Below are positions 1 through 46,900 of a DNA stretch of 64,000 bases, piece by piece. Location: assembly GCA_030704615.1 (NCBI GenBank), contig CM060734.1:62744001-62808000 (forward strand), in the 5' to 3' direction. The notes under the pieces are model-generated. The model was given only the letters and a program-made list of their open reading frames with translations. It was not told where the DNA came from and did no database searches. This DNA is from Takakia lepidozioides (Eukaryota > Plantae > Bryophyta). A program made the position numbers and the translations under genes. Each line of letters begins with the position of its first letter. The first letter of the stretch is position 1.

Positions 1-790
1 ACTACTGCAGTCTCCTTGCAAGCAAATCTAGCTCTCGGCCAAAGAGAAGGAAATAAGGCGAGAACGAGGCAAGTGATGCTTGTTTGCTAAACCTGTAGCC
101 CATGGCCAACCAAGCTAGCTGAAGGTCCCAATCTCCCAAGTGTCCCTTCTGCAAGCCATACTTGCGCAAGCCTCGCTTGACTGTTTGCATAACCCTCTCG
201 GCCAAGCCACCTCGGGATGATCCCGAGAAGTAGTGCGGTGATCTATCAAGGCTTGCTCACACAAAGCCTGAAAACTCCCCAAGAACTCTCTCCCCTGGTC
301 CATGAGTACCTCGGCTGGAGCACCAAATTGGCTAAGCACTCGATCTAAAGAATGCATACGTAGCCTCCTCACTTGCCTTGTCAGGCAATGCCACCAGTTC
401 AATCCATTTGGAGAATTGTTCCACCATCACCGGTACATACTTGTTATGGTGAATAGTTAGTGGCAATGGGCCTGCGAAGTCAAGACTCCAACGATAGCCC
501 AAACCCATAATGGGTAAAGGATGCAATTGTGGAGTAGGGGTGTTGAAAGAAGCCCGCACTCTATCACACACCATGCATCTTGCCACTAATTGCTGCACAT
601 CCGTGTGCATGCCCCGCCACCAATACTGTCCTTGCAACAAACTATGAGTGCGCCGTACCCCAAAATGTCCCAACTCCTCATGGGCATAACGTACCAATCG
701 CGCTCGTTGTTTTGGGTGGGGCACAATCCTCACTCGTCCATCCTCCCATACTCGGAGTAGGTGAGTCCCCTCCCACTTGAACCTCTTGGC
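1..790 (-). pseudogene. Integrase (H2C2 zinc-binding domain plus DDE core), frameshifted
   Basis: AHEELGHFG..YWWRGM..CMVCDR; WSLDFAGP; FGAPAEVLMDQGREF; AERVMQTVK..SPYFLLFGR, spread over ORFs 332-994, 115-402 and 2-205. Confidence 0.9.
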
Positions 791-1009
791 TCGTTGTAGG
801 ATCCGATCTTTCTCCTTAGCAGTCACACTGGCTATTGTCTCTCTAGTACGAAGGTAGGCCAACACTGCTGCATTTTCATGTACATCCTTAGCACCACCAA
901 ACTCCTCACTAGTCTCTGGATTGTCATGCACGCTATCTATATGACATATCGCATGGGATGGACTAGCTTGAACTCCCATTGCTAGGATGCACAAAAAGGC
1001 AAATGCATG

Positions 1010-2410
1010 TCATCCTGGCACCATCTCGTCATCTGTCTCACCATGCCAACGAGCTCCTGTATCATCAAGCTCACTTGTGCATGGATTGCGACTCAATCCA
1101 TCCGCATCCCGGTTGACTATTCCGGCTCGATGCACCACTTGGAAGTCGTACTCTTGAAGCATAAGTGCCCACCGTGCAAGCTTCCCTATAAGCTTGTCTG
1201 ACTCCATCAACCACTTCAATGGTTGGTGATCCGTGACAAGGGTGAAGAGATTGCCATAGAGGTAGCATCTAAAATGTGTCATTGCCCATACTGCAGCTAG
1301 ACACTCCCCTTCATAGGAGCTATACTTTGCCTCGGCATCATTGTTCGAGCGGCTAGTATATGCCACTACAAACTCTCTTCCCTCATCATCCACCTGTGTG
1401 AGCACTGCTCCAATCCCCAGCATACTCCAATCTGTATGTAGCTGGAAAGACCGCCCCCGAATAGGCCGCCTCAGAATAGGCGCAGAAGTCAATCAAACCT
1501 TGAGTTCCTCAAAGGCTTCCTCCTGCTTCTCCTCCCACTGCCGCTCCTGACCCACCTTGGTCAACTTGGTAAGAGCCTTTGCAATGCTGCTAAATCCCTT
1601 GACAAACCGTCGATAATAGTTTGCCAACCCCATGAAAGCACGAACTCTGCTAACATCAATGGGGCGTGGAATGCGTGCAATGGCCTCCACCTTCGTCTTT
1701 TGAACACCCAATCCTCCAGGGTATATCATGTGCCCAGATACTCAATCTAATCGTGGAAGAACTTGCACTTTCTAGGGTTTAGTTTCAATCCATGCGCCCT
1801 CAAACGCTCAAACACCACCTGAAGGTGTTTCTCATGCTCCTCAACCGTGGCACTAAAGATGATGATATCATCAATGTAGCACCGAGCGAAGTCTAGCCCT
1901 GCAAGAATCATATCCATAACCCTCTGAAGGAGCATTCTTCAACCCAAACGGTAGGAACCGCCATTAGTACAAGCAATCGTTCTCATGTTGGTCAATCCCC
2001 CAGAATGTCGTCTTTTGCTTGTCAGCCTCTTTGATTGGCAACTGGTGGTAACCGGATCGCAAGTCCAATGTGCTAAACACCTTTGCATGCCCAATGGCAT
2101 GAAAGATCTCCTCTGGAATTGGCATGGCATATCTATCGGACTTAGTCTGACGGTTCACAGGACGGTAATCCCCACACATCCTCTTTTATGTCCAATTGCC
2201 ACAGATATCCTTCTTAGCTGGCATCACCGTTGTCGAGGCATACTCCCCGCCTGACAACTCCACCAATCCAGCTTCAAACAACTCCATAGTCCGTGACTGG
2301 ATCAAAGACCTCTCCATATCACTATACCTATAGGGCCTTCGAAAGATTGGCGTGTCACTTGCCGAATCAATACGAATCTCCTGACCCTTCAAACTCCCCA
2401 AATCCTTCAA
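1010..2410 (-). pseudogene. Reverse transcriptase and RNase H of the Gypsy pol
   Basis: PIFRRPYRYS, MCGDYRPVN, LDLRSGYHQ, YIDDIIIFS, LKLNPRKC, FMGLANYYRRF, LHTDWS, TDHQPLKW; interrupted by in-frame stops at about 2186, 1964, 1747 and 1493. Confidence 0.95.
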
Positions 2411-2956
2411 ACTAAAGGCAAAGCAATTTCTATAAGCCCTTAGAAATCGCTGGATCCTCCGTTTCTCTCCTCCGGTGACTGTAGGTCCAACATCTGGCTC
2501 CCAATTGTCCTCAGTGACTGCAACCTTGGGTACACCAGGCTTGGAGGTAGGAGACGAATCCTTTGGTTGCTAGATAGCAACCTCTTGGGCCTTGTCCGCC
2601 CAATCTAACTGTGGCGTAGCCTCCACTTGCTCCGCCATAGCTACCTTGAGAACATCCTCTGAGCAAGAAACATTCTCAACTTCTTCAAAAACCTTGGCCA
2701 CCTTGGCTTCCAACTGATCCTTAGTCCATGGCTCTCCCCACTCCTCATATTGCTGCTTGAGAGATCCAATGACTCTCTTTTTGCGCATCTCATCTCACAT
2801 CTGCCATGGGTGTTTGCACCCCATGATCTTGTGCTCGCCCCCATTCACTGCCTCCACCGTCCCGGTTGGCAGAGATGGTGCAATATCCAATGGAAGTGCA
2901 GAAGTAGCCACTAATGCTTGCAATCTCCGTTGCTCAGCCATGCACAAGCCAATGAC

Positions 2957-3900
2957 CTATGTCAAGCAATTGAGATCCATGGCGTGACCCAACACCTTGC
3001 GTCGTGATGCCTCTAACAGAGCTGGCATAGCTGTACTGCCCGTGGCAAATCCCATTGCCCGCTCTCGCTCATCCGCATTGGACTCCACCAATTGCTGTAG
3101 CATACTGTCCCAAGTCAACCCACGATCATTGTTTCTAAAAGCATGAGATGAGGGAAAGCTCATGAGCGTAGGCAAGGCTGCCTGTGGCTGCCCCACTCGA
3201 TTTACCACTGCTAGAGGTGGACGGTCATCATGTCGCACCCTCTGTGGTTGCCTTCCTTGGTCCAAAATGCCCTCAACCGTGAGGTTGGGTGGCCATTGAA
3301 TGGAATCATAGGCTCTCTTGAGCAACTCTGGTGATGCAAGATTGGTCCACCACAACCTAGGCCTATGTGCCCGTGAACCCACTGCAGTTGCATCCAACAA
3401 TACAACTGGTCCAATCCATGACCGGATCTGATGCACACTGGCCATAACCCTGGCCCGAGGATCCCCCATGAGAGGCACATTCTCCAGGATGTAAGCTGGA
3501 GGTTGCACTTGCCTCACCTGCAAGTCACGCAACACTCGCAACATCTCCCAAAACAAATGCGATCATGCATCATGCAAGCCATTCCCATGACCTGTGGGAG
3601 AGTGTCTTTGGCAAGGCCAGCCAGCTATCACCAAGTCAATGGAACCATGCCGGTCCAAATCATCCGCCCCTAGCAAGGTAATGTCTGTTGGCAAGGCCTT
3701 TTGATACCCTTGAATTGCTGAGAGAGGCAACAACTCAGGATACTGGTGTGTGAGCAAGGCGATGTGGCGCATAAAAATACGCCGAGCTATCTCATCCTTC
3801 TTCACATATAAGTACTTGCGTACTTTAATCCCTGCTTGCAATACTCCTGCAAGCCCAGTGCTCATGCCGCCAATCAAGTCTAGCAAACAAATCCTTGAGT
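2957..3900 (-). pseudogene. C5 DNA cytosine methyltransferase domain (DNMT3-like) embedded in the retrotransposon pol
   Basis: Motif I LLDLIGGMSTG, motif IV IDLVIAGWPCQ (catalytic PC), motif VI YILENV, motif VIII GSRAHRPRLWWTN, motif IX ERERAMGF, motif X RRKVLGHAMD; a single in-frame TGA at 3563-3565 splits ORFs 3563-4258 and 2957-3556. Confidence 0.9.
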
Positions 3901-4249
3901 CAGGTGGTTGCCAGGTAATGGGCACTGTGTCCATAGGAGCTAACTCAGGAGGTCCAGATGATGTCACTGAACTCCCCTCACGCACCAATGGAAAGGCCTC
4001 CTGCCATGCTTGGTGCACACACTCGTCTGCTACTTGATGCAAATTCCCAACCGTACCCCACAGTGGTCTATGCACAGACACATGAGGAAGAAAATCAGCC
4101 TTGTATGCCAATTGTTTGTCCTCATCAGGTGATGGCCTATCATCTGCATGGCTATTGCCCTCCAAGAGCTCACCACCCCAAGCCACCACCCCTGAGAATG
4201 CAGCCAATGTGGGCATCATGTTCCTATGATCCACCGCTACATTCCCAAT

Positions 4250-4733
4250 AAACCGCACTGGGAGCAGTGCACGTCGCCCATCTCCTGACTACCATTCCGG
4301 CCTGTAGGATGCCGTTTCCTCCCAAAAATCCAGTGTGAATCCCATGGGGTATAACACCGCCCCACCAACAAGCACATCATAAGATCGCGTCCGTAACAAT
4401 GGCTTTAGCTCTCATGACTGAGCCATCCGTAGGATGATCCGGCTGCAATCGAATAAAGAGCTCATGGCATGTAATCCCTCGTGTCTTCTCTGAACCGCCC
4501 AAAGATGTTTGAATTTGGAAATGGCAAGGCTCCAAATCCGCCTCTGTAAGGCCCAAGCCTGCAATTGTTGCTCTTCCCAACATCAATGGCTGTGCTCCCG
4601 AGTCCAACAAGACCCGCAATGGCCTATATCTCTTCCCGGCTGGGCCACCCAACTGAAACACACCATCCTGATTGTCCACCAGGACTACCCCAGGAGTCAC
4701 CATACTACGCTCAATGGCTGGTCTAGCTGGCAA
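4250..4733 (-). pseudogene. Retroviral-type aspartic protease
   Basis: RVLLDSGAQPLMLG active-site motif, followed after a frameshift by a DVLVGG-like segment at about 4380-4360. Confidence 0.85.
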
Positions 4734-5199
4734 CTCCTACAACCTTGCAGCTGTCACTTGCCATGGCGCGGCTGTGGCTGACTTCACCCTCGAATCCAAA
4801 GCATCCATAGATTGCACCTTATCTGCTATCTCCGCAGATAGTGCCGATGCAGCACCACTCTCACAGAGTCTAGCTGCTAGTCTGAACATAGCAGCTGGCC
4901 GAATCCCCGGCATTGCAATGGTCATTGCAGAAAATAATGGAGCTTGGCAAACCGCCGTAGCCGCCCCCAACAATGTACTGGCTGCACCTTGCTTTGCAGC
5001 ACCACCCACTGGCATTTCCCGAGCCACACCAATACTCCCCAATGACATTCGTGGCTCTACCTCTGACACACTTGGGCGAGCGGGTGCCCTTTGATGACAT
5101 AGGTGGCACTGTCTCAGCCAATGTAAAGGACTGTGGAAGCCTTGTCTGACGACTTGCTTCCCCCCTTTGTGGATCAAAATCCACATCCGCTCCTCGTGG

Positions 5200-6387
5200 C
5201 TCAGGAGCACGCGTTGCTGCTCGAGTGACAGCAGCAGAAGAGTCCAATACATGCAATAGCCCTACAAGTGCGGCTCCACACATGAAGCCCATACCAATCT
5301 GATTTTCCCTAGGCATAAAAGGTTGTGTAGGTGGGGCTTGAACCTCAAGCCTTGGAGCTGGCGCAACATGAGTAGTGGCCATGGCAGCAAGATGTTGCTC
5401 TAGCTAGGCAAGTCTATCCACCATGCCTTGGTCATGACCTTGACCTTGACCCTGTGCTCCTTGGTTTTCGTTACGACCTCCACCGCGACCTCTGCCTCCT
5501 CTACCTCTCTGGACTACATTGCCTCGTCCTCGGCCACCATTGTTCTCTTGGAACTGGCCTGGCCATAGCTCGGGATGCAAGTCATAACAATGGGCCCCCT
5601 CATGCCCATACTTGCTACAATGCCCACATTGTAGTTGTGTAGGTTGTGCCTGTGCCGGCCCTTTGTCTCTCTCCGGGCAATCTCTCTTAACATGGGGTCT
5701 TCCACAATCCCAACATGTCATACCCAACTGTTGTTGGCCTAAGAATGAAGGAAGTGACCTCTGCAATTGAGATCCTCTCTGTCCTTCCCTGGGCTTCACA
5801 TGAGCCCCCTTGTTGCCTTGAGCACGTTGGGGTAGTGGTTGTTGATGGCTAGGAGCCCCGCTTCAATGTGTCTCCTTACCAAACCCTATCATGACTACTC
5901 GCTCCTCCACCATATTGAGCTCTATCCGCTCTGCCAGCAGAAACACGTTTGCTAAGGTGGGTTGGTCCACTTGTAGGAGAGTTGCATCCCGCACCCTTCT
6001 CCTCAGCTCCTTGTCTAGGATCCCATACCAGAACTGGATTGCCCGAGCTTCTGTAACCCCTTGGGTTACGTTTATCAAGCGCCTCATGCAAGTGTAAGCC
6101 TCCCTCAAACTCTCAGTAGACCTTCGTTGGAACTCTTGCAAGCTCCGCAACTTCTCTGTCCTTATCCCTTGGTAGTTTCTCCTCAACTCCTCGAAGAACT
6201 CCACACTGGGTTAAAGGCAGGCACGGGTGCTGGTGCTATAGCAGGAGCTTGAGTGGATTTGCCAGCTCCTGTACCACTTGTCCCACTACTAGTGCTTGTA
6301 GTTGGAGATGTTTGTGTAGCTGCTGGTGTCGCCGCTGCCCTTGTGCCTCTAGTGATTGAGACATAGTTAGGTGACCAATACTTTCGC
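5200..6387 (-). pseudogene. Gag, C-terminal part
   Basis: RKYWSPNYV.., FFEELRRNYQG..FQRRSTESLREAY (retrotransposon gag QxxxES-type motif), two CCHC knuckles, RGG-rich tract. Confidence 0.85.
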
Positions 6388-7150
6388 TAGGGTTAATACC
6401 CGGACCGGCTGGTATTGCCAAAGGCAATACCCGTCCAATACCGATATCATGGGCATAAGCACGGACTATACCATGGTATAGCAGCCATTCTTTTAGTGAC
6501 GAATAATCGCCAGATTTCGACCTCAAAAAATAAAATAAAATATTCTGTCGCAAATCCACTGTTTTTTCATGGATGAAATCACCAAATTTCTCCAAATAAA
6601 AAAACAATTATGGATAAATTTGCCAAATATGGATGATATATATGGATGATGGCACATATGTGGATGAACAGAATAAACGGCTATTTCCTGCAAAACTCTG
6701 TAGCCACTCATGCTGTTTTCCAAATTTCTTAAAAAAAACACTGTGCTATAGATATGAAATTGGGTGGGTACACATGTCAGGGTAAGGGGGTGCACATATG
6801 AGGGGGGTCAGGGCATGTCAAGCCCCAAGGGTCCGCCACCACTGTTCATTTCTTAGCACATGCAGGGCGGGCCCGCCCCTATTCTTCATATTTAAGCAAA
6901 ACTCATTCCAGATGCTGGTTTTGAGGATGAGGTGACTCGTCTTCACTTTGCATACTAAAATCTACAACGTTATTATATAATGCAAGTCTGAATTTTACAA
7001 CATAATAATTAATTTCTGTGCAAAATCAAGTATGCTTCTAAAGTAAAGACATATTAATGATTTGGTGGTTATTTTAATTATTTATATCCGGGTTGATAAC
7101 CGGCTGGTATTAGATTGGAATACCCATCCTATTGATACCCGTTCGCAAAT
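6388..7150. mobile_element. Non-coding, MITE-like insertion interrupting gag
   Basis: AT-rich segment that begins abruptly at the gag break (TAGGGTTAATACCCGG); repeated AATACC motifs; CCGGCTGGTATT at 6405-6416 and 7100-7111. Confidence 0.5.
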
Positions 7151-7494
7151 CAAAAATCATACTACTATTGAGAACCGGCGTGAAGGATAACTGACTTTTG
7201 CTCAGCTCATCGCCTAAATGGGCGAACCTTTGTGGGGTTTTTTTTCCATCCAGAGTATCCTTTACGGATCCTGGTGTCATATTTCCTGGGTTTCCTCGAA
7301 TAGCCTCGTAACAGATAGCTGGAAACAAAGGATCGCTCAATATTTTGGTCAATCTGCATTGTTAGAGGGTTGTCTCAGACTTAGACAGTTTTACGGGTTC
7401 TATGGGGTACCCTTAATTTTCCGCAGACCTACGGGTAGTAGACTCGGATTAGACACAGACCTTAGGGGTGGCATACAGGCTCACACAATCAACA

Positions 7495-7620
7495 ATCACA
7501 AGCTTGTACAGCCTATCACAGCCTATCACAGTCCGACACAACTTGTCACAGCCTGACACAGCCTGTCACAGTTGGACACAGCGTGACACAGCCAGTCACA
7601 GCCCGTCACAACGTACACAG
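7495..7620 (+). repeat. Degenerate ~10-bp tandem repeat (GTCACAGCCT/GACACAG)
   Basis: Seen directly. Confidence 0.75.
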
Positions 7621-9542
7621 GGAACGGTTATCATTGGCAGAGAACGATTGTGTGGGAACGACATCTGCAGAAGGAACGTGCGTTCTATTCTGTCTTGGAT
7701 GACAGTTAGTTAGTTAGGCGGTTAGAACAGCTTGCAGATAGAATAGACAGAGTAGCGACATGGAGAGGATGACTTCTTGGACATGGTTTCTGGCATCACA
7801 GCGGAGAATACGATGTCATGGTTTTAGTCATGGTTATCTAGAATTACCTACTTCTAGTTAACTAGGACATTTTAGATATTTATATTTATATTTTGTGTGT
7901 TGGGACTTCATTTGGTCTCACATGCCAAGTGAGGTGTCGAGCCTCACTTGGGACATGGGGATAGGTATTCCCCTTGTGAGTGTTGAGGAGGCTCATCTTC
8001 TTGTAGTTGAGCCTCCAAGAGCTTCTCTTACCTCCATAGCTCTAGGTATTGAGAGGGAGTGTGTTGAGGGCTTTGTAGGGTGGATTCCCTTAGCAAGGGT
8101 GCCCTTGGCTTGACTTAGTTTATGTGATAGAGTGGATTTCACTTGGAAGGACTAGGGCTTGTTCTTAGTGTGATTGCTTCATGTTTTGAGAGTTTTCATT
8201 GTCTTCCACTTCTCTCATTTCTCATCTCTTATCACTACAAGAAGATCACCTTATGCTTGTGAGTGCGGAGTGTAAGGATTAGTTTTGCACTTGTATGTTA
8301 AAGAGGTTGAGAGCTAGGAGAATTTAGCTCTTGTATCACAAGGCTTGCAAGGGGTTGCAAGAGAAGGTGCTCGAGTGTTGCATGCACCAAGGAGTTGGAG
8401 AGCTTGAGAAGAAAGCTCTTGAATCACAAGATTTTGCAAGGATTGCAAGGAGGAAGTCTTGTGTGTGTGGAAGCATGGATTCTAGGGTTTGAGAATCATT
8501 TGTATGCATTATGGAGTCAATGGTATGTGCCATAGCTTGTGGAGAGCAACTAAAGGATTGTTAGTGCTCATTTCACTATCAATCTAGGGTTAAGCAAGTT
8601 GAAAGTGTGGATGTTGTGGAAGGGAAGCCGAGGAGCTACATAGGCTTGGGCTTGAAGACAACAAGGGCAAGCACTTGGAGAGCACTAAGAAGCTCAAGAG
8701 GTTTTGAAAGGGAGCGTGTAAAGAAATCTTCCAATCATGGTGGTGTGGAGCCAAGCTTAGGGCGCCATTGGAAGGGCTTGGAGAACATATGGTGGGAAAT
8801 CCTTGAAGGGAAATCATCATTCAATGTATGCATAGCTTCACCCTAACTATGTAATGTGACAAGAGGGGGGAGGCAATACTTGGCTATTCATGCTCTTGGT
8901 AGTGCGAGCTTTGTGGTGGATAGTTGACCAAGCAAGTGGTGCATGTGTGGAGCATGCTTTCTTGAGTTTGTAAGTTCAAGTTTGAGAAGGGGAGCTCTTG
9001 AACTAGCAAGAGGTGAAGGCCTTGAGATCCATTTGTGTGTGAAGTGGAGAGGTGTTGATTCATGTTACAATGAAGGAGAGCAACACATAGGCCAAGAGGT
9101 CATGGAACATGCATTCAATGACGAAGGGGAGCATATGGATGATGGATTAGTGCAAGACCCCAAAGGAGGCATATGGCGTGAGAGTGGGATCCAAGATGGA
9201 TTGCTTGGGAGCATTATTGTAAGTGACAAGCATTGCTCCTACACATTGAGATAATTTGTGTTGATTTGGAGCAATTGTCAAGTGATGAGGAGACAAATGC
9301 ATGATTGCTCGGCAATGGAGATATGATAGTTTGCAACCAACTCCCAAGAACTAGAAGGGGGATTGATTTGGTGGACAATGACTTGCAAGTTGAGTTGGAC
9401 CACTCTTGGTTGCACATTGGGGTGGAAGAGAGCAAAAAGATGCCTCTTATGACCACCTAGAGACCAAATTTTTGCTTGAGTAGAAGCATAGAAGTCAAGG
9501 ACTTACATTCTAGCTCTTCATTACAAACCCTAGTAGTATATG

Positions 9543-9940
9543 CTCAGACTATACCTCTGTTAGTATACCAAACAAGAGCTTGTTCCTTTGACTATACCTC
9601 TGTTGAGGTATCACCATATGTGAACCCTAATGTGAGACTATACCTCTGTTAGTATACCAAACAGGAGCTTGTCCATTTTACTATACCTCTATTGAGGTAT
9701 CACCATATGTGAACCCTAATCAGCTCAGACTATACCTCTGTTAGTATACCAAATAGGAGCTTGTCCCTTTTACTATACCTCTGTTGAGGTATCACCATAT
9801 ATGGACCCTAATCAGCTCAGACTATATCTCTGTTAGTATACCAAACAGAACCCTCATTTTCAGACTATACCTCTATAAAGGTATCATCAACATAAGGGAC
9901 CCTAACAACCTCAGACTATACCTCTGTTAAGGTATCAACA
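9543..9940 (+). repeat. Tandem array of ~90-bp units built from ~45-bp subunits with core ACTATACCTCTGTT
   Basis: Core recurs about 9 times, alternating between two related spacer types. Confidence 0.9.
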
Positions 9941-10732
9941 TTGAAAGGACTTAGTGAAATTTAAGGGCCTTTGGAGAATCGTTTGGAAGATATTTGAGGG
10001 CCCTTGGAGGATTGTTTGGAGGATCTTTGGGGTCCTTGGAGGACTATTGGAGGACCCTTCGAGGAGCTTTGGTGGACAATGTTGAAGAGCTCTTGAATGA
10101 TTGATTAAGGGATATTTGAAGGATATTTGTCACGGCCATACAAGCGAGTGGATAGAGACAGGAGGGAGAGTGGTGGGATGAGAGCATTCTGGGGTTAGGA
10201 ATTGCTTTAGTTTCTCTTCTCCATAGTCTTTCACCATCTCTATAGGCCAAAACCTTTCCGTAGGTGGAGGCAAGAGTCAGTCCGGGTTTGGGCTGGGGTG
10301 TCCTTGCAGGAGCGACACTATGGAGTGTTTTTGGTGTGGGGGAGTTGTTGTCTTGATTTTCTTGTGTTTGGATCCCCTCCACACTTGCATGCTTGACTGT
10401 GCGCCATGTTAGCTTTGTGTGGGCGCTTGTTTTCATAGGCGATTGGTCCGGATTTGATCACCGGCCAATCTTAGAGTATGCTGTCGGTGGTGAGGCTGGA
10501 GTGATGACCAGCAAGACCACCAGTGTTTTTTCTATGGTGAGGCTGGATTGATGACCAGCAGACCATATGAGTGTTTGCAGTGGATGCAGGTGTAGGTACA
10601 GGTCTACGTTAGAAACCTATTATTGCTGCTTGAACCAGTAGCCGCAACAGGTTCTCTACCCGGTTACCTTGTGGAAAGTGGGGATTAGAGACAGGTTGAC
10701 AACCGGTTGGGTTGTGAGTTTTCATCACGGAG

Positions 10733-11152
10733 GTGCCACCAGTTGTTGAGGGGAGTGCCGGTACGAGCACCAGTGATACTAGTGGGTACACAAGACGAGG
10801 TGTGCGGTTTAGGCCACCTTCACCTTCAGTGTCTTCTGAGGAAGGTTCAGACTCGGAGTCAGGAGGATTCTCGCCGAGGGTGCAAGTCATTTCCGTGCCA
10901 TTGTTGTGGGACATGATGGAGGAGATGTATGGTGCTACCAAGGGGCCACGTAGGTACTCTGGAGCTGTGGGCACCATCGAGCTTGATGACTTCATACAAG
11001 AGTTTGACAGTTGGTGTGATTTGCAGCAAATGCGCAATCCACAACTGTTTACGCCCTTTATGGCGTGGAAGGGGCTATTCCAGCACCTTGAGGGGCCGCC
11101 CATGGATGATTACCATGAATTTAGGCGGGGACATGCGGTGGAGATTGAGGAG
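10733..11152 (+). pseudogene. Gag N-terminal part, inverted relative to the rest of the element
   Basis: KGPRRYSGAVGTIELDDFIQEFDSWC..LFQHLEGPPMDDYHEF..HAVEIEE; continues in frame into RKYWSPNYV on the minus strand at 6387. Confidence 0.75.
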
Positions 11153-11847
11153 TATTACAATAACCAATACCAGCCGGGTCGGTTATTCAATACCCTGGTT
11201 TCTACCCGCCAAAACCCTATATTCCAGTCCAACACTGGTCTGGAGCTTAATGAAATCCATAATCCAGCTTCATGAGCTCCCTCAAATTGACCATTAGGCT
11301 CTAGGTGGTGATTTTAATATGGTAGATAAAAGTACTGATAGGCTAGGGCTTTTGTGTTCTTGATCTTTCCTGTGGAATGGAAGATGTGGGAATCTCTCTT
11401 GTAGTCTGTGGGTCTTTCAGACTTCTACTCCTTCCCTCTTTCTCCATCTCTCTCATGGACAAACAATTGGGCTCCACCCGGGCTGTGCATGGCGCGGCAA
11501 GACCGATTTTATTTCTCTTCCTCCATCTCCTAGATTGGGCCAAATATCGTCCAATGGGCCCTATCCTCCGAGTCTTCGACTACTTTGAGATCAGAGCGCA
11601 TATCACCACCCCCAGGGCACGAGCTAGGGGTCATGGCTACCAGAAGATCAATGCCTCTATTTTTAGGCATCCAAAATGTGTGGAGGCCCTTAAGTTGTAC
11701 TGGTCCTCCTCCTACCTTCCAGTTTTCAAACAAGGCGTGAGATACACGGATGCCCTCCCATTGTTTTATTGATATGAAGTGTAACATGGCCCAACTGGAA
11801 ACTAAAAACTTTCATGTTCCCATTAAGTCTCATGGGAACAACCCATG

Positions 11848-21300: not shown

Positions 21301-24300
21301 AGGTTTAAAATTCTGTGGGTACTATGCCCCAGATAGAGTATGAACATACAGAGGGTATGACATATCCTTTTTACCTGTAAAAGTCATTTGCATGTCACTG
21401 GTACTGATTGGATGCATACACAACTTAGTTATGTTCCTGCAGTTGGGGGGCGTGCTTAAGAAATGAACCCTTGAGTGGCTGCAATCAAGTCTCAGGTCTA
21501 ATAAGCTCCACCGGGGCAACGCTAAATGGGCTTTGTGATGTGTTCGAAATCTTCTGGTCATAGAAAGAGAGGCTTCAAGCTGACATTATGTGTTTAAATG
21601 TTCACTTTTCGTTGCAGAATGGGTGCTTTGATGAGGGGGATTGGTCTGCAGAAGCCTCGCCTCCTTCACACCAAGGAGCTGATATTGGTGCTGCTGTGGC
21701 AGCTCGTGTAGTTATACCACCACATGAAAAGAGAACTGTAGTCTTTGCATTGGCATGGGATTCCCCTGAAGTCAAGTTTTTGAAGGGAAAATCCTATCAC
21801 AGGTACGATTCAGGTGGCTACAACATGCGTTGACTTGTCTTCCATTGTGTTTAAGTAATTCAACTTCGATCCACATTTGATCAGCCTTCACCTGTGAAGG
21901 TGTAATGGGGTGATTTGAGTCAGTCCCTGTGTTCACCTTTCAGCTGAAAGGCAGTAGTGAAGTGACACCATACGTTACGCTCCCTGGGGGAGGCGTCATA
22001 TATATATATATATTCAGCACATGTTAGTGTGAGTTAAAGAGAGTGGGATGGGGAGGACAAGGAAAGAGTTTAAAGTAATGGATCATTATGCACTTGGCGG
22101 TCTTCGGACCATACTGTGACTACATTGGTTGAGTGCAGACGTTACACACAATTCTATGGCACCGCTGGTGATGCAGCTGCCAAGCTTGTATGCGATGCTC
22201 TTCGTGGTAATCCTTTTTGTACTGCTTTCTGGCACTTGTTTTCAGGGACTGTATCTATTGCATCCATGTTCCAAAGAGTGTTTGCTACCAAATCATGAGA
22301 GAAAAATCATGTTGCATCAAATGCCAAGAATGTTTGTATCGAGTTGGTTGAAAAAAACTTGCTAAGTTTTGCTGCTTCTATGGGGTTTCTCTGACACTGG
22401 TGTTTTCCTCACTGAAGCCGTTCTTCTGCAGCCAATCCTTGCAGCCTTTTGCTCTCATGTGATAATGGTTTTTAAATAGCGCTGTAGCCATTCATGAGAC
22501 ATGCTTTTTGAGTTTCCTAGGTGTCTTTTGCCCACACAATGGTGGTTGATGGGCCTGCAGAAAACATTAGTTCTTTTTTTGGGGATATGGGAATTGAGAT
22601 GAGAGGAGGCATTCTCATACATCATGATCTGAAGTTGTCAAATGACATACATAGGTTTTCCCCATTTTCTAGTAACATTTTTGTGTTATCGATCCCATAT
22701 TCACAAAATTTTCTGGGTGACTAAAGGCACATCTCCATTGACATGGAACCTTTCTTATATTTGTGTCTTCAAATAGAATTTGACTTGCTAAAGCAGGTTT
22801 TGCACACATAATAATCAGTGGAAGTGTCAAATGTGAGTAGACAGTGACCTCCTTGAAATGAACCTGGGCCTCCACCCTTTTCCAGCCCCTCCTCTTAAGG
22901 GGTTGACAAAAGGGGGTTTGTTTGGGGCCCAACCCTTGTAGTCGTAGATGGGTGATTGGATGCAATTTTTCTGGTTACTAACCCTTAACTGAGTAGAAAA
23001 GGGCCAATGGGGATGAGGAATAAGGGGTGCTAATAATTGCTGCTGTCCATAAGCAGTTGGGTTTTGAGCACATGGGAAATGCTGTCTTCAGATTACCGGA
23101 AATGGGAGGTGGAAATTGAGGATTGGCAACGCCCAATATTGAGGGATGAAAAGCTTCCTGAATGGTGAGTTACTAAAAAATGATCCAACCAAGTGTACGA
23201 CTGTTCTTCCCTTCCTTTTGTACTTGTTGATGGGATTCATCTTCCCACATGGGAAGTGTTGATTCATCAGAAGTTGTACAAGTGTAGGCTTGGTTGAATG
23301 CACTGTCGTTGAAATTCATAAACAGTTGTCCTCTTGGTGTATATCGCTTTTCAGGTACCGCGTTACACTGTTCAATGAGTTGTATTATCTTGTCGCTGGT
23401 GGCACTATTTGGACAGGTGCGATGGCAAACCCACATGGGGCAAGTATGTAATGTTATGAAAGTTTACAAGCTAGTTGAGAAGTGCACACGACATTGAGGA
23501 AACTCTGTGGTGCGTTGCTACTATTCGCTGCTCCATGTCCCTTTAAGCCACCTTTCTATGCAGTTTGTTCAGTAGCAAGGCATCTTCACAGTTGCCTTAG
23601 GCACCTTTGCTGTGCTATTAAAAGTTGATGGGGGAGAGCGCACAACTTCACATGAAATCTTGAGAGTGTTTCTGGCATCATATGTTAGCCCTGATGTGTC
23701 TTCCTATTCTAGACCCATTATGCCAGTGAATGTAATGTATCCTTCAAAAGATAGTGTCCAGAGTTGATGGTTTTTCCACCTTCAATTCAAGACTAGTGTC
23801 ATCAGCTTCAGCATCCCTACAAACCAGTCTGCAATTCAGTGCTAGCTTTTTAAAGTTCAGTGTAAAACCTGAAAATAATAGTTCTTACTACTGTCCATGC
23901 TCCCAGATGGCGGGCCTGCATTGCAAGGCAGGCCAGAGCTCTCCGTACCAAGCTCTACGCACAGCACAGCCCCAAGCTCTCCTATTGCTGGCCTTTCAAG
24001 TGTCACCACGTACGATTTGCCTTCTTTGACACAAAATGGTGGAAGCCCAAACCCAACATCTAGAGTTGGGCTTTCCAGTCCTGCAGAGGATGTGGAATTT
24101 TCTACTGGATACCCACAGAAGCAGTTGCTGTTTGACAGGTCTATGAGCAATGGCACCAGTGGAGGTCTTGAAAACCTTTCCCGACTCAGTGGAATGGAAG
24201 ACAGTCAGAGTAACTGGATATCAGAACTAGAGCATGTACATGGCTTCCCCTCTAATGGACCCCTTTCTGAGTTACAAGAAAATGCTGAAGATGCTCCCAT

Positions 24301-27214
24301 TGAGCCAACAGACGGTCCACAGACAGCAGATAAACCAGAGACAGCAGAGACGTTGATATTGAAAGCTATGCAGGAAACGATGCCACATGATGGCCAAGAG
24401 GGATCTGCAGGGCTTCCTTCTGGCATAACATTGCTCCAGAAAGGAGAGGAGAATGTAGGTCAGTTTCTCTACTTGGAAGGTGTAGAATACATTATGTGGT
24501 GTACATATGATGTACATTTTTACGCATCCTTTGCACTACTCTCCCTATTCCCCAAGCTTGAGCTCAGTTTACAAAGAGATTTTGCAGCAGCCACTCTCTC
24601 ACATAGTCCAGAGAGAGTAAAGTTTTTGGCCGATGGACACTGGGGTATCAAGAAAGTGTTTGGTTCGGTGCCACATGATCTCGGTCAACATGACCCGTGG
24701 GCATCAGTCAATGCTTACAACATTCATGACACAAGCCGGTGGAAGGATCTCAATACCAAATTTGTGCTTCAGGTATGTACCTATAGTCACGACTGGTGTG
24801 GGAGATCGACTATAGTTGGTCGAAAGCATGTTTGAGGATCTGTTACAGAGATTTTATCAATCCCCTATCATTGAGTCATACAGGTGAGGTGGCGGTGTCG
24901 GATCCACACAGGGATTTACGTGGAGAGTCTACAGACTATGCCAGTAGATATTGCAAGGAACAGCTCCTAATCCATTTCTACATTTTTGCACCGTCTGAAA
25001 AGAGATCACTACTTAGAAACTGCTGCCTCAATGGCACAGCCTAAATTGATCCCAATTTCCGATATAATTGATTGAATTCCATGAATGAAGTGCTCATGTA
25101 AATCCATAGTTACTAATCCAGTGGATGATGTCTCTGAGTGTCAAGATTCCAAGGTCAGTAGCTGAAATCATTAAGCTAGGAATAGCAAAAACATCTTTGG
25201 TGAAATAGGTGTCCCCTGCTGTTTTTTAACATTGATTTAGCCTTTTAAAAGTCACTGGAAGAAAGTCTACTATATCCAGACTCCCTCTGTTGACAGTTAC
25301 TAACACACATTTTTCAAATCATTAACCTTCTCTTGAACATAAATGAATATCTTCTACAAGCTTTGCATTTGTTACGATACCAGCCTGGTTTGGTGGTTGG
25401 TGCCTTTACTCTCAAGAAATGCTCTAATTATTAATGAAATCATATCTGCACCAGGTATACAGAGATGTGGTTGCAACTGGGGATAAAGTGTTTGCCCGAG
25501 CAGTCTGGCCCGCTGTCTATGCGGCCATGGCTTATATGGACCAATTCGACAAAGACAGGGATGGTTTGATTGAAAATGATGGCTTCCCAGACCAGACATA
25601 TGATACCTGGCCTGTGCACGGTGTCAGTGCTTACTGTGGGGGGCTTTGGCTGGCTGCACTGCAAGCAGCAGCTGCTATGGCTGACTTGTTGGAAGATGCA
25701 GCAGCAGCCCAATACTTTCGATCAAAATTTAACCAAGCTAGGGACGTGTACGAGAAGAAGCTATGGAATGGTTCTTATTTTAAGTATGACAGTGGCTCAA
25801 GCAGCAACAGTAACTCCATTCAGGTGACACTGAATTAGCTCCTTAAGTTGAACTTGTTTATTACTTGCAGCAACTAATGTACTTGTACACAAGTTAGGGA
25901 GGTCATCTTCCCTTGTTTCCTGTCATAACACTTGACAGCACAGGAACTGTGAAAGAAAGTAACTTCCTGAAAAGGTATATCAACCTGCCAGCGTAGGTCA
26001 CGAGGGCTGCATAGGTCCTGTGCAGCCCAATGTCCCGCACTTCGTGGGCCATTGGGCTGCACAGGCCTGAGCTTGGGTTTTGTCAAGAACTGGCACATGG
26101 AAGCGCGATTTAACCTTGTCAGACCCACGATGACTTCATAAAGGGGCATGGGTGCTCTATATGGAAGTGTGCCTTAACCTTGGCAGATGGTCATGCAGAA
26201 AATTGATGGCTCTTCATGAAGGTCTACTGTGATTCAGAGATCTAGAAGTCCTTACAATTGGGGCATTCACTGGTGATACATTGCAGAAGGGGTGGCTTTA
26301 ACTGCACATTTCACATGATTTGTAAGTTTGGAAGAAGCTTTGTGACCTCTCCAGTCAGAGATTGACATTCGGTCCATGTCATGGGTGCAGGTAGATCAGA
26401 TGGCAGGGCAGTGGTATGCATGGGCATCAGGGCTCCCCCCACTCTATGATGATTGCAAAGCCCGCAGTGCACTGCAGAAAATCTATGACTTCAATGTGAT
26501 GAAGGTGAAAGGTGGAAGGTGGGGAGCTGTCAATGGGATGCACCCAAATGGACAAGTAGATGAGACATCAATGCAGTCACGCGAAATCTGGACAGGTGTT
26601 ACATATGCATTGGCAGCTTCCATGATCCATGAGGGCATGCACACCCAAGCATTTAGCACAGCTGAGGGCGTGTTTCTTGCAGGCTGGTCTGACCTTGGGT
26701 ACCAGATACTTTGTCCTCTCCTGGTGGCTATCAGTAGAAATTTGTTCAGATTTCCTTCATTTTTACATATTTCTGCATTTGTATCATGCAAATCCACACA
26801 ACTTTTTTGGTGAGTAAGCATGACAAATACCTCAAGAATCCGGGTATCATAGCCTGATATTTGGGTGATTGCAGTGGATGTATTGTGTTGTCGTCACTAA
26901 CTTTCCAAACTTGCTGCAGATACTGGTTCCAGACCCCTGAAGCATGGTCAACAGATGGCTACTACAGGTCGCTGACATACATGCGCCCGCTTGCTATATG
27001 GGCAATGCAGTGGGCACTGTACCCACCCAAAGGTATTTCTCAAGCTCCTAGTGTCCCCTCCATGACACACAGTTCATCCGAGAGCATTCACTCAGGGTTT
27101 TCTTTTGTGGCTGATGCTCTTCGCAGCGTTCCTGTGCCAGAGCTCAGGAAACTTCGATCATGTTTCCACAAAATGTATGATTGTCTTTGTCTTCGGAGAA
27201 CTTCTAAGGGATAA
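15321..27214 (+). CDS. GBA2: Non-lysosomal glucosylceramidase, glycoside hydrolase family 116; 20 exons, about 1088 aa
   Basis: Exons 15321-15428, 16162-16272, 16489-16545, 16840-16913, 17154-17253, 17570-17655, 17844-17947, 18799-18902, 19061-19114, 19587-19642, 19815-19853, 20703-20850, 21618-21802, 22139-22206, 23092-23164, 23355-23416, 23907-24772, 25455-25823, 26391-26698 and 26920-27214 sum to 3267 nt in frame. Motifs [33 protein letters not shown] (nucleophile), [13 protein letters not shown] (acid/base), [18 protein letters not shown]. Confidence 0.95.
18230..18400 (-). repeat. Intronic dispersed repeat with (TTTCA)n tract; inverted copy at ~21120-21240
   Basis: CCCATAAGCTCTTTGAGTTTCCCGCGGACG..(TTTCA)n versus (GAAAT)n..CGTCCGCGGAAAGCTCATAGCGCTTATGGG. 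Confidence 0.65.
20110..20290 (+). mobile_element. LINE RT C-terminal fragment in GBA2 intron 11, next to a (TC)n tract
   Basis: [34 protein letters not shown] matches the YxYLG..W..HI LINE RT end motif. Confidence 0.7.
21120..21240 (+). repeat. Second, inverted copy of the intronic repeat
   Basis: Reverse-complement similarity to 18230-18400. Confidence 0.65.
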
Positions 27215-28770: not shown

Positions 28771-31700
28771 TCACCAGTAATCCCCACAAGAACAAACCCC
28801 ATCTTCAAAGTGGTGAAAGCGGTTAGCGTCCCGTACAACAATTGCTCGGCCAACAATCTTTGAGATGAATTTGGTGGAGGTGTGGCAGTCACCACACACT
28901 CGAAGATTCTTGATGAGACGGAGAGGCGTCCTAGGGGTTGTGCTGATCAGCCCAAAACCAATGGCGAGCTTCTCACTGTGGCAAAGAGAAAATTCCTTTT
29001 CCTCCTCCCCCACATCATGCAATACAAGGCGCGTGTCAAGCACATACCCCGCCTCCTTCATCTGCCCAGACAATCTTCTCAGCTCAGCATGGATTTCCTT
29101 AATTCTGGGATGCAACTTGTCATCTACAACAAAGGTGTGCACCCTGTTGTCAACCTCCATGCAGCAGCGACCTGGCTCCTTTCTAACCCCTCTGACCTTC
29201 ATCATTCTTCTCACCTTTGCAGTATCATCCCACCTGCCAGCTGCAGCATAGATGTTTGATAGCACACATAAGTCGCGGCATCCTGTTCATCCCACTTGAG
29301 GATAGATGTTGCCGCACGTTCAGCCATCTCCACATTGCCATGGATTCTGCAGGCACCAAGCAAGGCCGTCCACACCACAGCATCTGGATTGATTGGCATT
29401 TTATTAATCAGGTCCACTGCCTCATCCAGTTGTCCCGCACGTCCAAGAAGGTCCACGATGCAGCCAAAGTGCTTTACTGTCGGAGTGACACCATCCTCCA
29501 CCCCACGTCCCTGCTGTGCATACCCTGCAATCATTGCGCTCCACGACACCACATCTCGGTTCAGCCATATTCTTGAAAACTGCCTTTGCATCCTTAATGC
29601 ACCCACATTTGGCATACATGTTCACCAGGGCAGTGTTCAGAATGACATCTGGTACAATTCCAGCTTTGACGATGTCACCATGGACCTCTTTCCCCTTTTC
29701 CAGGGCTCCCAGGCTTGCACACGCATTACAAACACAAACAAACGTAATGTGGTTGGGCTTCACCCCTTCGCGCATCATTTGCTCATAGGTCTCCAAAGCA
29801 TTCCTACCACACCCATGCTTGGTAAATCCTGCCATCATTATATTCCACGTGATCAAAGATCGTTGAGGCATTCTGTTGAACACTTGGTGAGCATCCATGA
29901 TGCTCCCGCACTTAACATACATGTTGACAAGGGTGTTGAGAAGAAAAACATTTGGCGTGAATCCACTTTGGATGATGTGAGTGTGCACCTGCTTTCCAGC
30001 TTCCAGGCCTTTCATCTTGATGCACTTATGCAAGAGACAGGCATACGTATCTGAATCTGCTGAAATGCCTCCTTGGTTTAAAGTCTGTAGAGCCTCTTTC
30101 AGTCTGCCTGCCTCACAAAGCATCTTCACATACCCAGAAGTGGCATTGTGGACTCCCTCACTTGATCCTCTTCCAGAAGCTGTGGTCATGGTTGAGGTGC
30201 CTGACTTCATCAACTGTGCCGCTGTAGCTGCTGCCTTTAGTTGACCATCCACCCATGCAGGTTTCTTGTAGCTATTGATCCACAGGGAATCATAGGTAAT
30301 CTTGTGCTTGAAATCTGACCTCTTGGATGAATCTGGACCCACACTCTATCCCTGCTCCTTCAGCTAGGCAAATACATCCTTGTATTCAGTAAATAATGCA
30401 GTGGCTTCTTGTAGAAATGATTCTTCAAGACCTGCACTCTATCCCTGCTCCTTCAGCTATCCATGCCTCTGCACAAATCATGCATACATCCTTGCGGAGC
30501 CTATGAGAAAAGAGAGAGGCTGCTGTTGTATCCTCTTCACGGGTGGATGGCAGTCGCATTTCCGGTCCGACATCCTTTCACACTTTCGTTCCCTCAATTC
30601 CAATTTTCGTACAGACTCTTCGTCGAGCTTGTGACACCTTTGCATCCCTTAATACATGGTGGGACTGAAATGTGGTGCAGCATTTCCGTCCAAGCTCCCA
30701 CTCCAACAGGAAGGCCTTTTTAACTGTCTCGACGGAAATGCGGTGTCACATTTCCGTCCTGAGTGACACCTAGGATCTTTCGTACATGGTGCGTCCAAGC
30801 TCCCATTCCAACCGGCCTTTCTAACAATCTCTCTAGAAATGCGGTGCTGCGTCCTGACTGACACGCAAGCATCCTTGCTACACAGTGGGACGGAAATGCG
30901 GTGCTGCATTTCCGTCCCACCTCCCCTTATCACACTAGTTCCGATGCTGACTTGCATCTGCTTCCAACAGGCATTCACCTTTTTGCCTCGATTGTTCCAC
31001 CATTGACTGGGGTCGGAAACGTATTTATTCCATAGCTTCTCCTCGTCTCTGTTATCTGTTTTTCGATACTTTCCTGTTGCCACATTGGCAATAACATGTC
31101 AAAATCACTCCAAAACCACCCTAGATCCACCAACGAGCTAACTTGCAGAATCCAACATGAAAATTTAGGGACGACTATGATAACAGGGAAAAACAGGCTG
31201 ATATGTGTGCCTTCATTAGCAGTGCCTTGTTCTATCAATTGTGCTGCTGCCGCTGCTGTTTCCAGTTGACCATCTACCCACGCAGATTTCTTGTAGCTAT
31301 TGATCCACTGGGAATCAGAAGTAATCTTGTGTTGGAAATCAGGCCCTCTGCGACATCGACAGTAACTTGTCAAATTCACTCCAAACCACCAGAGATCCAC
31401 CCGACGAGCCAACTTCCAGAATTCAATATGCATCCAGGGCCGAGTCTGATGAAAGGGCAAAACAGGTTGAAGAAGAAGGTGCCCTCACCACATTGTCCTT
31501 GACCTTGTGTCATGACCCATGGAGGATTTAACCGACCATCAACCCAAAAGGACCTCTTGTGTGTGCTGCTTGTGTCTGTAGTCAGGTAATCTCGGCTTGG
31601 TCTGTAAGAACCACCACGCTGCAGCTGAGCAGGCAGAGATTGAAACACGGCCTGCTAAGACCAAGCTGACTCTCCCAAGAACCTTGTAAACATCAGGAAG

Positions 31701-45404: not shown

Positions 45405-45949
45405 GTATGATGTACTTGTCCTGTGAAGTCTATGTACCGAAATAAAAAATGCGAGTCTTTTCGCTTACTATTCCAGTGGTGATAAGCACTTTTGTGTACT
45501 GTGGGTGCTGGCATGTTTTGTAATGTTGTCACTAAACTCAATGGACACAATGATGTCAATTTTTCCATGCACTGTGCACCCGAGTCTGCTGAGCTTGAAT
45601 GTGCGAGCAGTACGCTGCCGAGGCTAGGACTGCTGGGTCTGGTACCTAGTCTGGGAGGCACCATGTCCATGAGTCCGCTGGGACGGTGGATTGGCATAAG
45701 TTGCAAGGATGAGGTGGAAGTGTGGTGAGCAGAGTTTTGGAGTGGGCAGCAGACTGACCAGCAGACTGGCTTACTGGCCCTCGCAGTCTATTGACTGTGA
45801 CTCTGTTGGGAGACTATGCGTGAGTTCGTTGGGAGACTATGCTTGGGAGAGTGTGTGGGAGTCAGTTGGGAGACTGGAGGAGTCCGTTGGGAGACTGTGC
45901 ATTAGTCCATTGCGGACTTGTATTTCAGAAAGGGACAATGCTACCAGAA

Positions 45950-46200
45950 GAATTGCAGACTTATATTGTCTTCTTCGTGACACATACACAACATGAAACC
46001 TTGTCTCTTTTCGAGGAATTGCACACTTATATTGTCTTCTTCGTGACACGTACACGACATGAAACCTTGTCTCTTTTCGAGGAATTGCAGACTTATATTG
46101 TCTTCTCCGTGACACCTACACGACGTGAAACCTTGTCTCTTTTCGAGGAATTGCAGACTTATATTGTCTTCTTCGTGACATCTACACGACCTGAAACCTT
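45950..46200 (+). repeat. 66-bp tandem repeat, about 4 copies
   Basis: GAATTGCAGACTTATATTGTCTTCTTCGTGACAC..GAAACCTTGTCTCTTTTCGAG units. Confidence 0.95.
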
Positions 46201-46239
46201 GCAAATTTTCAAGTATATATGTGCTGCAGGTGCAGGTAG

Positions 46240-46900
46240 ACACCCTCTTGCTTGTTCTCCGCAAAACCCTAGGCCGGGTTTTCCAGGCCTCCACGAAATC
46301 TCGTCTCCTTTTCAGAGACATGTTATTGTTGTCATTCAGAGGACAGAAAGCCTTCGCTGCCGCAGGGTGCAACATTCCAGCCGCACTTTTCGCCAGGATA
46401 TCAATGAGCTGCCCTCTGCACATATGAAGAGCAGATCGGGCATGTGCCTCCAGGTATTTGTCATCACCTACAATGCGAAGTATGTCCGCGAATTCTTGTT
46501 CCAATGAGGCTGAGACCTCCAGAGGTGCCTCATCGTAGGGGAAGTCGTCCGGAGGATGTCTTTCCATGAACTGATTGGATTCGTCGTTGCCGCCGGCACC
46601 ATTGCCCAAGAGCAAGTTAGGTAATCCTCCATGAATGGTTCCCAGCGCCGTGCCACAAGCGCGCACAAGGAGGCCATCCTGCAGGTCAGGGTGAAGCATC
46701 TTCATGACACGGACCTGATGCTTGCATAAGTTTCCCTTCATTGCCCATGGGCACGTGCAACAACCCCAATCGCAATCAGGATTTAAACAATGTACGTTGT
46801 GCCGGGATGGTTGTTGCTGAGAACGTAGGCTGGTTTACCACGACCCAAGGGAAGAGTAACACTCTCAGCAGGAATGTCTCGTGCCGCAAGTATAGAACTG
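46240..46900 (-). pseudogene. MULE transposase C-terminal remnant with SWIM zinc finger
   Basis: NPDCDWGCCTCPWAMKGNLCKHQ (CxC..CxH); paralogous to NPQSNWGCCDCRHARKGNMYAHQ at ~50740-50810, with a similar C-terminal NMSLKRRRDFVE versus NTLMRWKNFLE. Confidence 0.85.

Follow-up and report, generated by a model that had tools for sequence, protein, structure and literature searches.

Analysis of a 64,000-nucleotide stretch of Takakia lepidozioides DNA (hereafter the window) revealed a decayed Ty3/Gypsy retrotransposon on the minus strand of positions 1-6387, the integrase of which runs past the window edge. Its domains follow one another in the order gag - PR - DNMT - RT - RNase H - integrase (Table 1). 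The sequence-only reading had placed a cytosine methyltransferase between the protease and the reverse transcriptase, in the same orientation as both, and this is the arrangement that we found. A single frame, interrupted by stops, is common to the DNMT, most of the RT, the RNase H and the integrase, with the PR being frameshifted around position 4385. The gag-PR-RT-RNase H-integrase order that characterizes Ty3/Gypsy elements is present in this copy and in an intact relative (L042), and the domain content excluded a host gene, a Copia element and a DIRS element.

Table 1. Features of the retrotransposon copy, in window coordinates
Feature	Coordinates	Strand	Remarks
Integrase, H2C2 finger and core	1..760	-	continues beyond window; PF00665, PF17921
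RNase H	1139..1504	-	PF17917 E 5e-36
ORF2 start and reverse transcriptase	1562..2563	-	several stops, two frameshifts (~1922, ~1732); YIDD in shifted piece
Conserved in-frame UAG followed by CAA CCA (UAG-CAR-YYA type), ORF1/ORF2 boundary	2564..2572	-	likely leaky
Linker from DNMT to end of ORF1	2573..2959	-	two stops (2959-2957, 2797-2795) absent from host's other copies
DNMT3-like C5 cytosine methyltransferase domain, 315 codons	2960..3904	-	premature TGA 3565-3563; PDB sequence search, Foldseek
Motif I, LDLIGG	3883-3866	-	
Motif IV, GWPCQ	Cys 3613-3611	-	
Motif VI, ENV	3484-3476	-	
Motif VIII, AHRPRLWWTN	3370-3341	-	
Motif IX, ERERAMGF, then motif X, LGHAMD		-	
Aspartic protease, LLDSGA	4274..4670	-	Asp 4604-4602; frameshift ~4385
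Gag, C-terminal part	5056..6387	-	two zinc knuckles (~5715-5584)
Inverted-repeat arm	6388..6435	.	partner arm 11147-11219; TAGGGTT at both ends; likely DNA-transposon end at inversion breakpoints
Probable inverted 5' repeat and leader (candidate)	7814..10915	+	begins TGTCATG as relatives' repeat A; no DNA homology found
Gag, N-terminus, inverted here	10916..11153	+	P0123 residues 1-80, 81% identity; host's other copies connect 11153 to 6382/6387

Stops and frameshifts are spread over gag, PR, DNMT, RT and IN. Moreover, host contigs from four sequencing runs join position 11153 to 6382/6387 on opposite strands, and therefore the 5' part is inverted in the window copy. With its stops, frameshifts and inverted 5' part this copy is dead and, being dead, uninformative on the activity of the enzyme. 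Three related short elements that share a CCGGCTGGTATT core lie at 6388-6435, 7090-7140 and 11147-11219, two of them ending in TAGGGTT. We take the TAGGGTT-ended inverted arms that flank the inversion to resemble the ends of a DNA transposon, and the short elements at the gag inversion breakpoints are likely to be the DNA transposon that rearranged this copy. Tandem repeats were also found in or beside the inverted 5' part (four 92-nt units at 9546-9910 and nine 10-nt units at 7497-7616). The segment 7140-10916 matched none of the relative loci that we collected.

Elsewhere in the window, a PLS-E-E+-DYW PPR gene (28771-30345, minus strand) is apparently broken by frameshifts, with its middle missing or shifted, and the Atlas neighbours of the PPR protein are mostly Streptophyta. 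Exons of a GH116 (GBA2-like) glucosylceramidase were found at 23882-26813 on the plus strand (PF04685). This gene content marks the host as a land plant. From ~39500 to 60900, fragments on both strands include a SWIM finger (45944-46834) and a Ulp1-like C48 peptidase (44970-45401); they likely belong to MULE-type DNA transposons carrying a protease.

We then considered the methyltransferase domain. Its motifs, which correspond to C5-methyltransferase motifs I, IV, VI, VIII, IX and X, occur in the canonical, unrearranged order on the minus-strand translation and end at position 2960, which excludes a DRM-type enzyme and upholds the complete ordered motif set described earlier. The features expected of a DNMT3-type domain (motif I, the PC of motif IV, ENV in motif VI, RxR in motif VIII, and motifs IX and X) are all there, with motif I altered in the window copy. 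As for the extent, 2957..4258 had been proposed; the domain proper covers 3904-2960, and 4258-3905 is the linker between PR and DNMT. In a PDB sequence search, 29 of 30 matches were DNMT3A/B/C (best E 1.4e-9) and the remaining one was M.HaeIII. An AlphaFold model of low confidence (pLDDT 59) gave a best Foldseek E-value of 6e-8, with DNMT3A/B throughout among the top matches listed. Pfam responded weakly to the broken halves, with PF00145 at E 0.009 on one and nothing on the other, and intact relatives passed its cut-off (E 1.8e-13 for L042). The Atlas returned a generic DNA-methylase cluster only, most commonly from Streptophyta. Together, the motifs, searches and predicted fold confirm a DNMT3-like C5 methyltransferase domain at the level of sequence.

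Relatives of this domain are numerous. Protein searches gave 200 near-length matches (the best 120 listed), 53 long ones and 47 more, and a scan of metagenomes confirmed 96 stretches, from which 80 loci were kept; in almost every one, other domains of the element adjoin the DNMT in an unchanged order. By contrast, none of 61 pattern matches in a scan of viral contigs was a relative. In the host itself, 45,903 contigs of run X1 fell on window 1-11400 and covered all 30 bins, which indicates many copies and is not a copy number. DNMT relatives share 54-67% identity in Marchantia, Calypogeia and Sphagnum and about 42-47% in Closterium, with 67% between the window DNMT and the Marchantia Mp4g09160 model P0123. 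Named carriers are Marchantia polymorpha, M. paleacea, Calypogeia fissa, Sphagnum troendelagicum, S. fallax and Closterium, in agreement with the earlier suggestion that the lineage is present in land plants. None of the proteins found in these searches bears the name Klebsormidium. Among the Marchantia models, P0123, P0124, P0175, P0176, P0182 and P0183 encode Gag-PR-DNMT in ORFs of 1248-1281 aa labelled as hypothetical proteins, and two of the six map to the V chromosome (Mp_Vg).

Relationships were read from quick trees with SH-aLRT supports, built from DNMT rows reduced from 125 to 72 at 80% and from 38 RT rows of which 10 near-duplicates were dropped; both trees are weakly rooted and do not include Klebsormidium or host DNMT3 sequences. 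In the DNMT tree, the window copy falls into a group with Marchantia, Calypogeia and Sphagnum (14 rows, SH-aLRT 99), and this bryophyte group is nested in a 26-row clade (SH-aLRT 99) that contains the forms with a stop at the end of ORF1. The RT tree shows the same nesting. Forms with PR, DNMT and RT in a single ORF (P0225, P0229, P0264 and P0153) and the Closterium proteins fall outside the 26-row clade. In a large sister lineage (P0157, P0158, P0160, P0164 and representatives from the profile search), the DNMT follows RNase H and precedes the integrase, and a C-terminal PHD finger is usual. This RT-RH-DNMT-IN order occurs in 35 of 133 new representatives, 30 of them with the PHD, and both trees recover the RT-RH-DNMT-IN(-PHD) type as a separate clade (RT 99, DNMT 96).

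These data bear on whether the domain could have been picked up from a host DNMT3 in a single event and retained as a neutral passenger, for which the premature stop and altered motif I of the window copy might speak. Other copies of the family carry the DNMT, in the same position in elements from two genera of liverworts as well as from Sphagnum and Closterium, and with element neighbours; the domain is intronless in the relatives; none of the 53 long matches is a DUF3444-bearing host DNMT3, and DUF3444, the C-terminal feature of host DNMT3, gave no Pfam match in 22 long relatives or in the ORF1 of L042. A profile search reached 442 clusters (50% identity) at E<1e-30. Together with the purifying selection described below, the family-wide matches and the locus context already contradict a neutral capture, which we regard as extremely improbable. 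The DNMT is a family trait, and it belongs to the element, as first proposed, and not to a neighbouring host gene.

Ratios below one had been put forward as a check, and between diverged copies with estimable dS we obtained dN/dS values of 0.12-0.20 for the DNMT. First, the intact pair L041-L042 gave dN 0.031 and dS 0.270 (ratio 0.115). Second, the window copy and L001 gave the same ratio of 0.115 at a dS of 2.9, near saturation. Third, seven other between-subfamily pairs with finite dS ranged from 0.15 to 0.20, the rest being saturated (pN 0.22-0.38 vs pS 0.75-0.88). These estimates argue that the DNMT is under purifying selection. Recent decayed copies of one subfamily gave 0.46-0.94, as expected if copies degrade once inserted. 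The DNMT has diverged at roughly double the rate of the RT (pN 0.27 vs 0.13 between the window copy and L001; the misaligned L002 RT5 rows were left out of the selection comparison). Sorted by context, 24 copy-private transitions were 2 CG, 6 CHG and 16 CHH, approximately as in the background.

The DNMT had been read as lying inside pol, in one uninterrupted PR-DNMT-RT frame. This did not hold, since a conserved in-frame stop divides Gag-PR-DNMT from RT-RH-IN. In the intact L042, a 1369-aa ORF (Gag-PR-DNMT) is followed by one TAG and then, with the frame unchanged, by a 1047-aa ORF (RT-RH-IN-PHD). The homologous codon is a stop in 46 of 48 distinct linkers (TAG in 32 and TAA in 14; three were placed by eye), the 48 being drawn from 61 and not independent, most coming from one subfamily. 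Of the two exceptions, L019 carries its stop downstream of this position, past an insertion, and L013 does not align colinearly. As a background, the DNMT shows 170 stops in 14,513 codons, with 11 of 46 copies hit at the most-hit site. Linker offsets range from 267 to 411 nt over six subfamilies, each of which retains the stop in frame. Within 2572-2564, no variant reached 30% in host runs X1, X2, X3 and X5, and the two other linker stops of the window copy differed in about 99% of the depth.

The six letters that follow the stop are CAACCC in 35 cases, CAACCA in 4, CAGTTA in 2, CAACTA in 1 and others in 4. UAG-CAR-YYA is thus fully matched in 7 of 46 (the window, with TAG CAA CCA at 2572-2564, and 6 distinct linkers), and CAA CCC, present in 35 of 46, is one letter off. 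UAG-CAR-YYA is described in the published texts as the type I readthrough signal, sufficient in plants, including in reporters (PMC3542737, PMC2754532). The tobamovirus signal discussed there precedes a polymerase, and the UAG with CAA CCA, CAA CTA or CAG TTA found here does likewise; the present signal differs in that it belongs to a retrotransposon, follows Gag-PR-DNMT, has CAA CCC in the main subfamily and is known from sequence (PMC3542737, PMC2754532). No shared fold was found in the 80 nt after the stop of 9 sequences. Among 45 collected proteins with PR and a complete DNMT at 45% identity at least, many of them near-duplicates, 42 lack RT; the other three are Marchantia models in which the DNMT-RT spacing is shortened, probably through splicing past the stop. 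A conserved UAG in a readthrough context between Gag-PR-DNMT and RT-RH-IN suggests that ribosomes likely read through it, and hence that the enzyme is likely made at Gag stoichiometry and packaged.

The stop could instead be real while RT-RH-IN is reached by splicing or reinitiation, leaving the DNMT linked to Gag all the same. As reinitiation would need, the largest subfamily has an in-frame AUG two codons past the stop, and L041 has one four codons past it, but neither the window copy nor L042 has an AUG within the first 60 codons after the stop, and in L001 and L079 the first comes at codon 48. Likewise, spliced-looking gene models connect DNMT with RT in Marchantia (P0126, P0129 and P0133) and Sphagnum (P0166). 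Their DNMT-RT spacing is 56-121 aa vs ~158 codons in the loci, and from this shorter spacing the joined models likely reflect predicted introns that skip the stop. That there is a single stop, flanked by one unchanged frame and set in a CAR-YY context in six subfamilies, also argues against splicing or reinitiation, which we consider improbable compared with readthrough.

The repeats of the family proved to be split, a structure known from relatives because the 3' end of the window copy lies outside the window; repeats A and B of the relative L068 had no match in the window. Loci that group with Sphagnum have a repeat A (~340 bp, starting with TGTCATG) at the 5' end and, at the 3' end, a purine tract, a repeat B (~115 bp, ending in CACGACA) and, in some copies, A and B again. 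What comes after the first B is A in 5 loci plus a degenerate pair and unrelated flanking sequence in 10 distinct loci, a tally from which one rearranged pair and one contig end were left out. The full A-I-B-A-B arrangement is complete in L029, L054 and L068 and partial in L003, L077 and L037/L038. The TG...CA ends, polypurine tract and target duplication of an LTR element were found in the relatives only, which have A-I-B-A-B or A-I-B in place of two whole LTRs and a tRNA primer-binding site; in 3 loci inspected by eye, no TGG-type primer site followed repeat A. Among 8 loci with both ends, the 4-bp target duplication is exact in 5, has one mismatch in 2 and is absent from 1. None of 7 target duplications fits the NCGN preference that the published text gives for the Phygy clade (PMC6317226). 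At the B|A junction, GACA-NN-TGTC has exact arms in L003, L054, L077 and L042 and decayed ones in L029 and L068. This palindromic junction suggests integration from a circle; the duplications and junctions would fit cutting of such a circle, and B-B recombination could also yield A-I-B.

From these observations we infer a sequence of steps comprising readthrough, packaging, circle cutting and methylation. Most ribosomes would stop at the UAG and produce Gag-PR-DNMT, with a minority continuing into RT-RH-IN(-PHD), and the protease would free the DNMT within the particle. The double-stranded cDNA would be circularised, and the integrase would cut the GACA-NN-TGTC palindrome inside an LTR consisting of B+A, a two-LTR circle giving A-I-B-A-B and a one-LTR circle A-I-B. 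The DNMT would methylate this extrachromosomal DNA, most likely at CG, and the DNA would enter chromatin already host-like in its marks. We lean slightly towards this model, in which Gag-PR-DNMT is made in bulk, readthrough gives RT and integrase, and the DNMT released in the particle methylates the element's own cDNA before integration, probably at CG. Several points stand against it. First, the domain of KnitGypsy-Dnmt3 from Klebsormidium gave no methylation in yeast, a result that its authors call inconclusive in the published text (PMC5890265). Second, CAA CCC, the most frequent context, lacks the final A of CAR-YYA, and the AUG that this subfamily has two codons on allows reinitiation. 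The GWECQ form of motif IV in outer relatives, the dominance of one subfamily among the linkers, the higher dN/dS of recent decayed copies and the gene models joining DNMT to RT also count against it.

An abundant ORF1 enzyme might also work chiefly inside the nucleus, with integrated copies or the chromatin of the host as its target (limiting the element itself or silencing competitors), and not on particle cDNA. Synthesis at the Gag level would give far more enzyme than one cDNA requires, but fusion to Gag and PR, an established packaging route of retroelements, points to the particle. A slowing, host-beneficial role is among the options that de Mendoza et al. raise in the published text (PMC5890265); against a nuclear role, host DNMT3 and CMT are reported to explain non-CG methylation already in Physcomitrella and Marchantia (PMC6453930, 10.1101/2021.02.12.428880). 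We find mainly nuclear action unlikely.

Alternatively, the domain might have been retained because it binds nucleic acid or methylates RNA within the particle, rather than for methylating DNA. This would agree with the inactivity in yeast noted above for the Klebsormidium domain (PMC5890265), with the Pro-to-Glu change in motif IV of outer lineages (GWECQ for GWPCQ in P0227, P0225 and P0160, 3 of 10 aligned rows) and with the two different polyprotein positions that the element tolerates. It is harder to reconcile with the motif IV Cys, the ENV/EN and the motif VIII R-x-R, all kept in 10 of 10 aligned rows, with the closest solved structures being DNA enzymes and with the Dnmt3 domains of dinoflagellate retrotransposons, which are described as methylating CG in yeast (PMC5890265). 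A binding or RNA role seems to us improbable, and methylation of the element's own cDNA stays our preferred account. On a broader scale, we tentatively picture an old and widespread green-plant lineage in which DNMT is packaged at capsid stoichiometry by readthrough, circular cDNA is cut at a palindrome and pre-methylated copies are delivered, with a sister lineage having moved the enzyme between RNase H and a PHD-bearing integrase; this wider picture is plausible, with somewhat more room for doubt than for belief.

Retrotransposon-borne DNMT3 is already known from KnitGypsy-Dnmt3 of Klebsormidium nitens, and the present family works likewise, differing in having its DNMT outside the Pol ORF. 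As characterized in the text of de Mendoza et al. 2018 (PMC5890265), KnitGypsy-Dnmt3 has Ty3/Gypsy domains, an intronless, divergent, in-frame Dnmt3-like domain and purifying selection, and its Fig. 4 legend calls an A-coding-B-A-B layout DIRS-like, the same split layout as in the window's relatives. There the DNMT is placed in the Pol ORF, whereas in the bryophyte family it lies upstream of the conserved stop, in a Gag-PR-DNMT ORF; its host is an alga and the present family is in land plants, the likeness being drawn from the published description and not from sequence comparison (PMC5890265). SymbioDIRS-Dnmt3 shares a retrotransposon-borne Dnmt3 and split repeats, and its enzyme is reported to methylate CG de novo in yeast, but it is a dinoflagellate DIRS element with a tyrosine recombinase, in contrast to the DDE integrase (PF00665, PF17921) found here (PMC5890265). 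EpiLTRs/DAM-LTRs (bioRxiv 10.64898/2026.05.21.726589) are likewise LTR elements with methyltransferases and a chromatin-reader domain; the posted text places their DNMT as the sister of DNMT4, accompanied by DAM and a chromodomain, whereas the present family has a DNMT3-like enzyme and, in L042, a PHD on the integrase. Plant host DNMT3 (PpDNMT3a/b) has the same DNMT3-type domain with unrearranged motifs but carries a C-terminal DUF3444 in the published description (PMC6453930), which is lacking in the 22 long relatives of the window DNMT.

Our literature search found no paper on land-plant copies, on the stop or on the circle route, and supplements or subscription papers outside that search may hold bryophyte copies. 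Among the papers it turned up, only PMC5890265 and the preprint 10.64898/2026.05.21.726589 name elements of this kind. The text of 10.64898/2026.05.21.726589 mentions 'streptophytes (Gypsy-DNMT3)', and passages of PMC12344493 write 'streptophytes' without naming land plants there. By word search, Marchantia and Sphagnum are absent from three supplementary files of PMC5890265.

It has been asked since 2018 why a transposon would carry the very type of enzyme by which it is silenced, and the hosts described so far, Symbiodinium and Klebsormidium, are hard to work with. The conserved stop predicts an enzyme made at the Gag level and present in particles, and the split repeats together with the target duplications suggest that the element integrates by a route uncommon for a DDE integrase. 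Copies of the family also distort the DNMT tallies of bryophyte annotations by making them larger and harder to interpret. Long intact Gag-PR-DNMT frames are found among the gene models of Marchantia, for which methylation mutants and methylomes exist. If the proposed mechanism is true, self-methylation by a transposon would become testable in a model land plant, Marchantia polymorpha.
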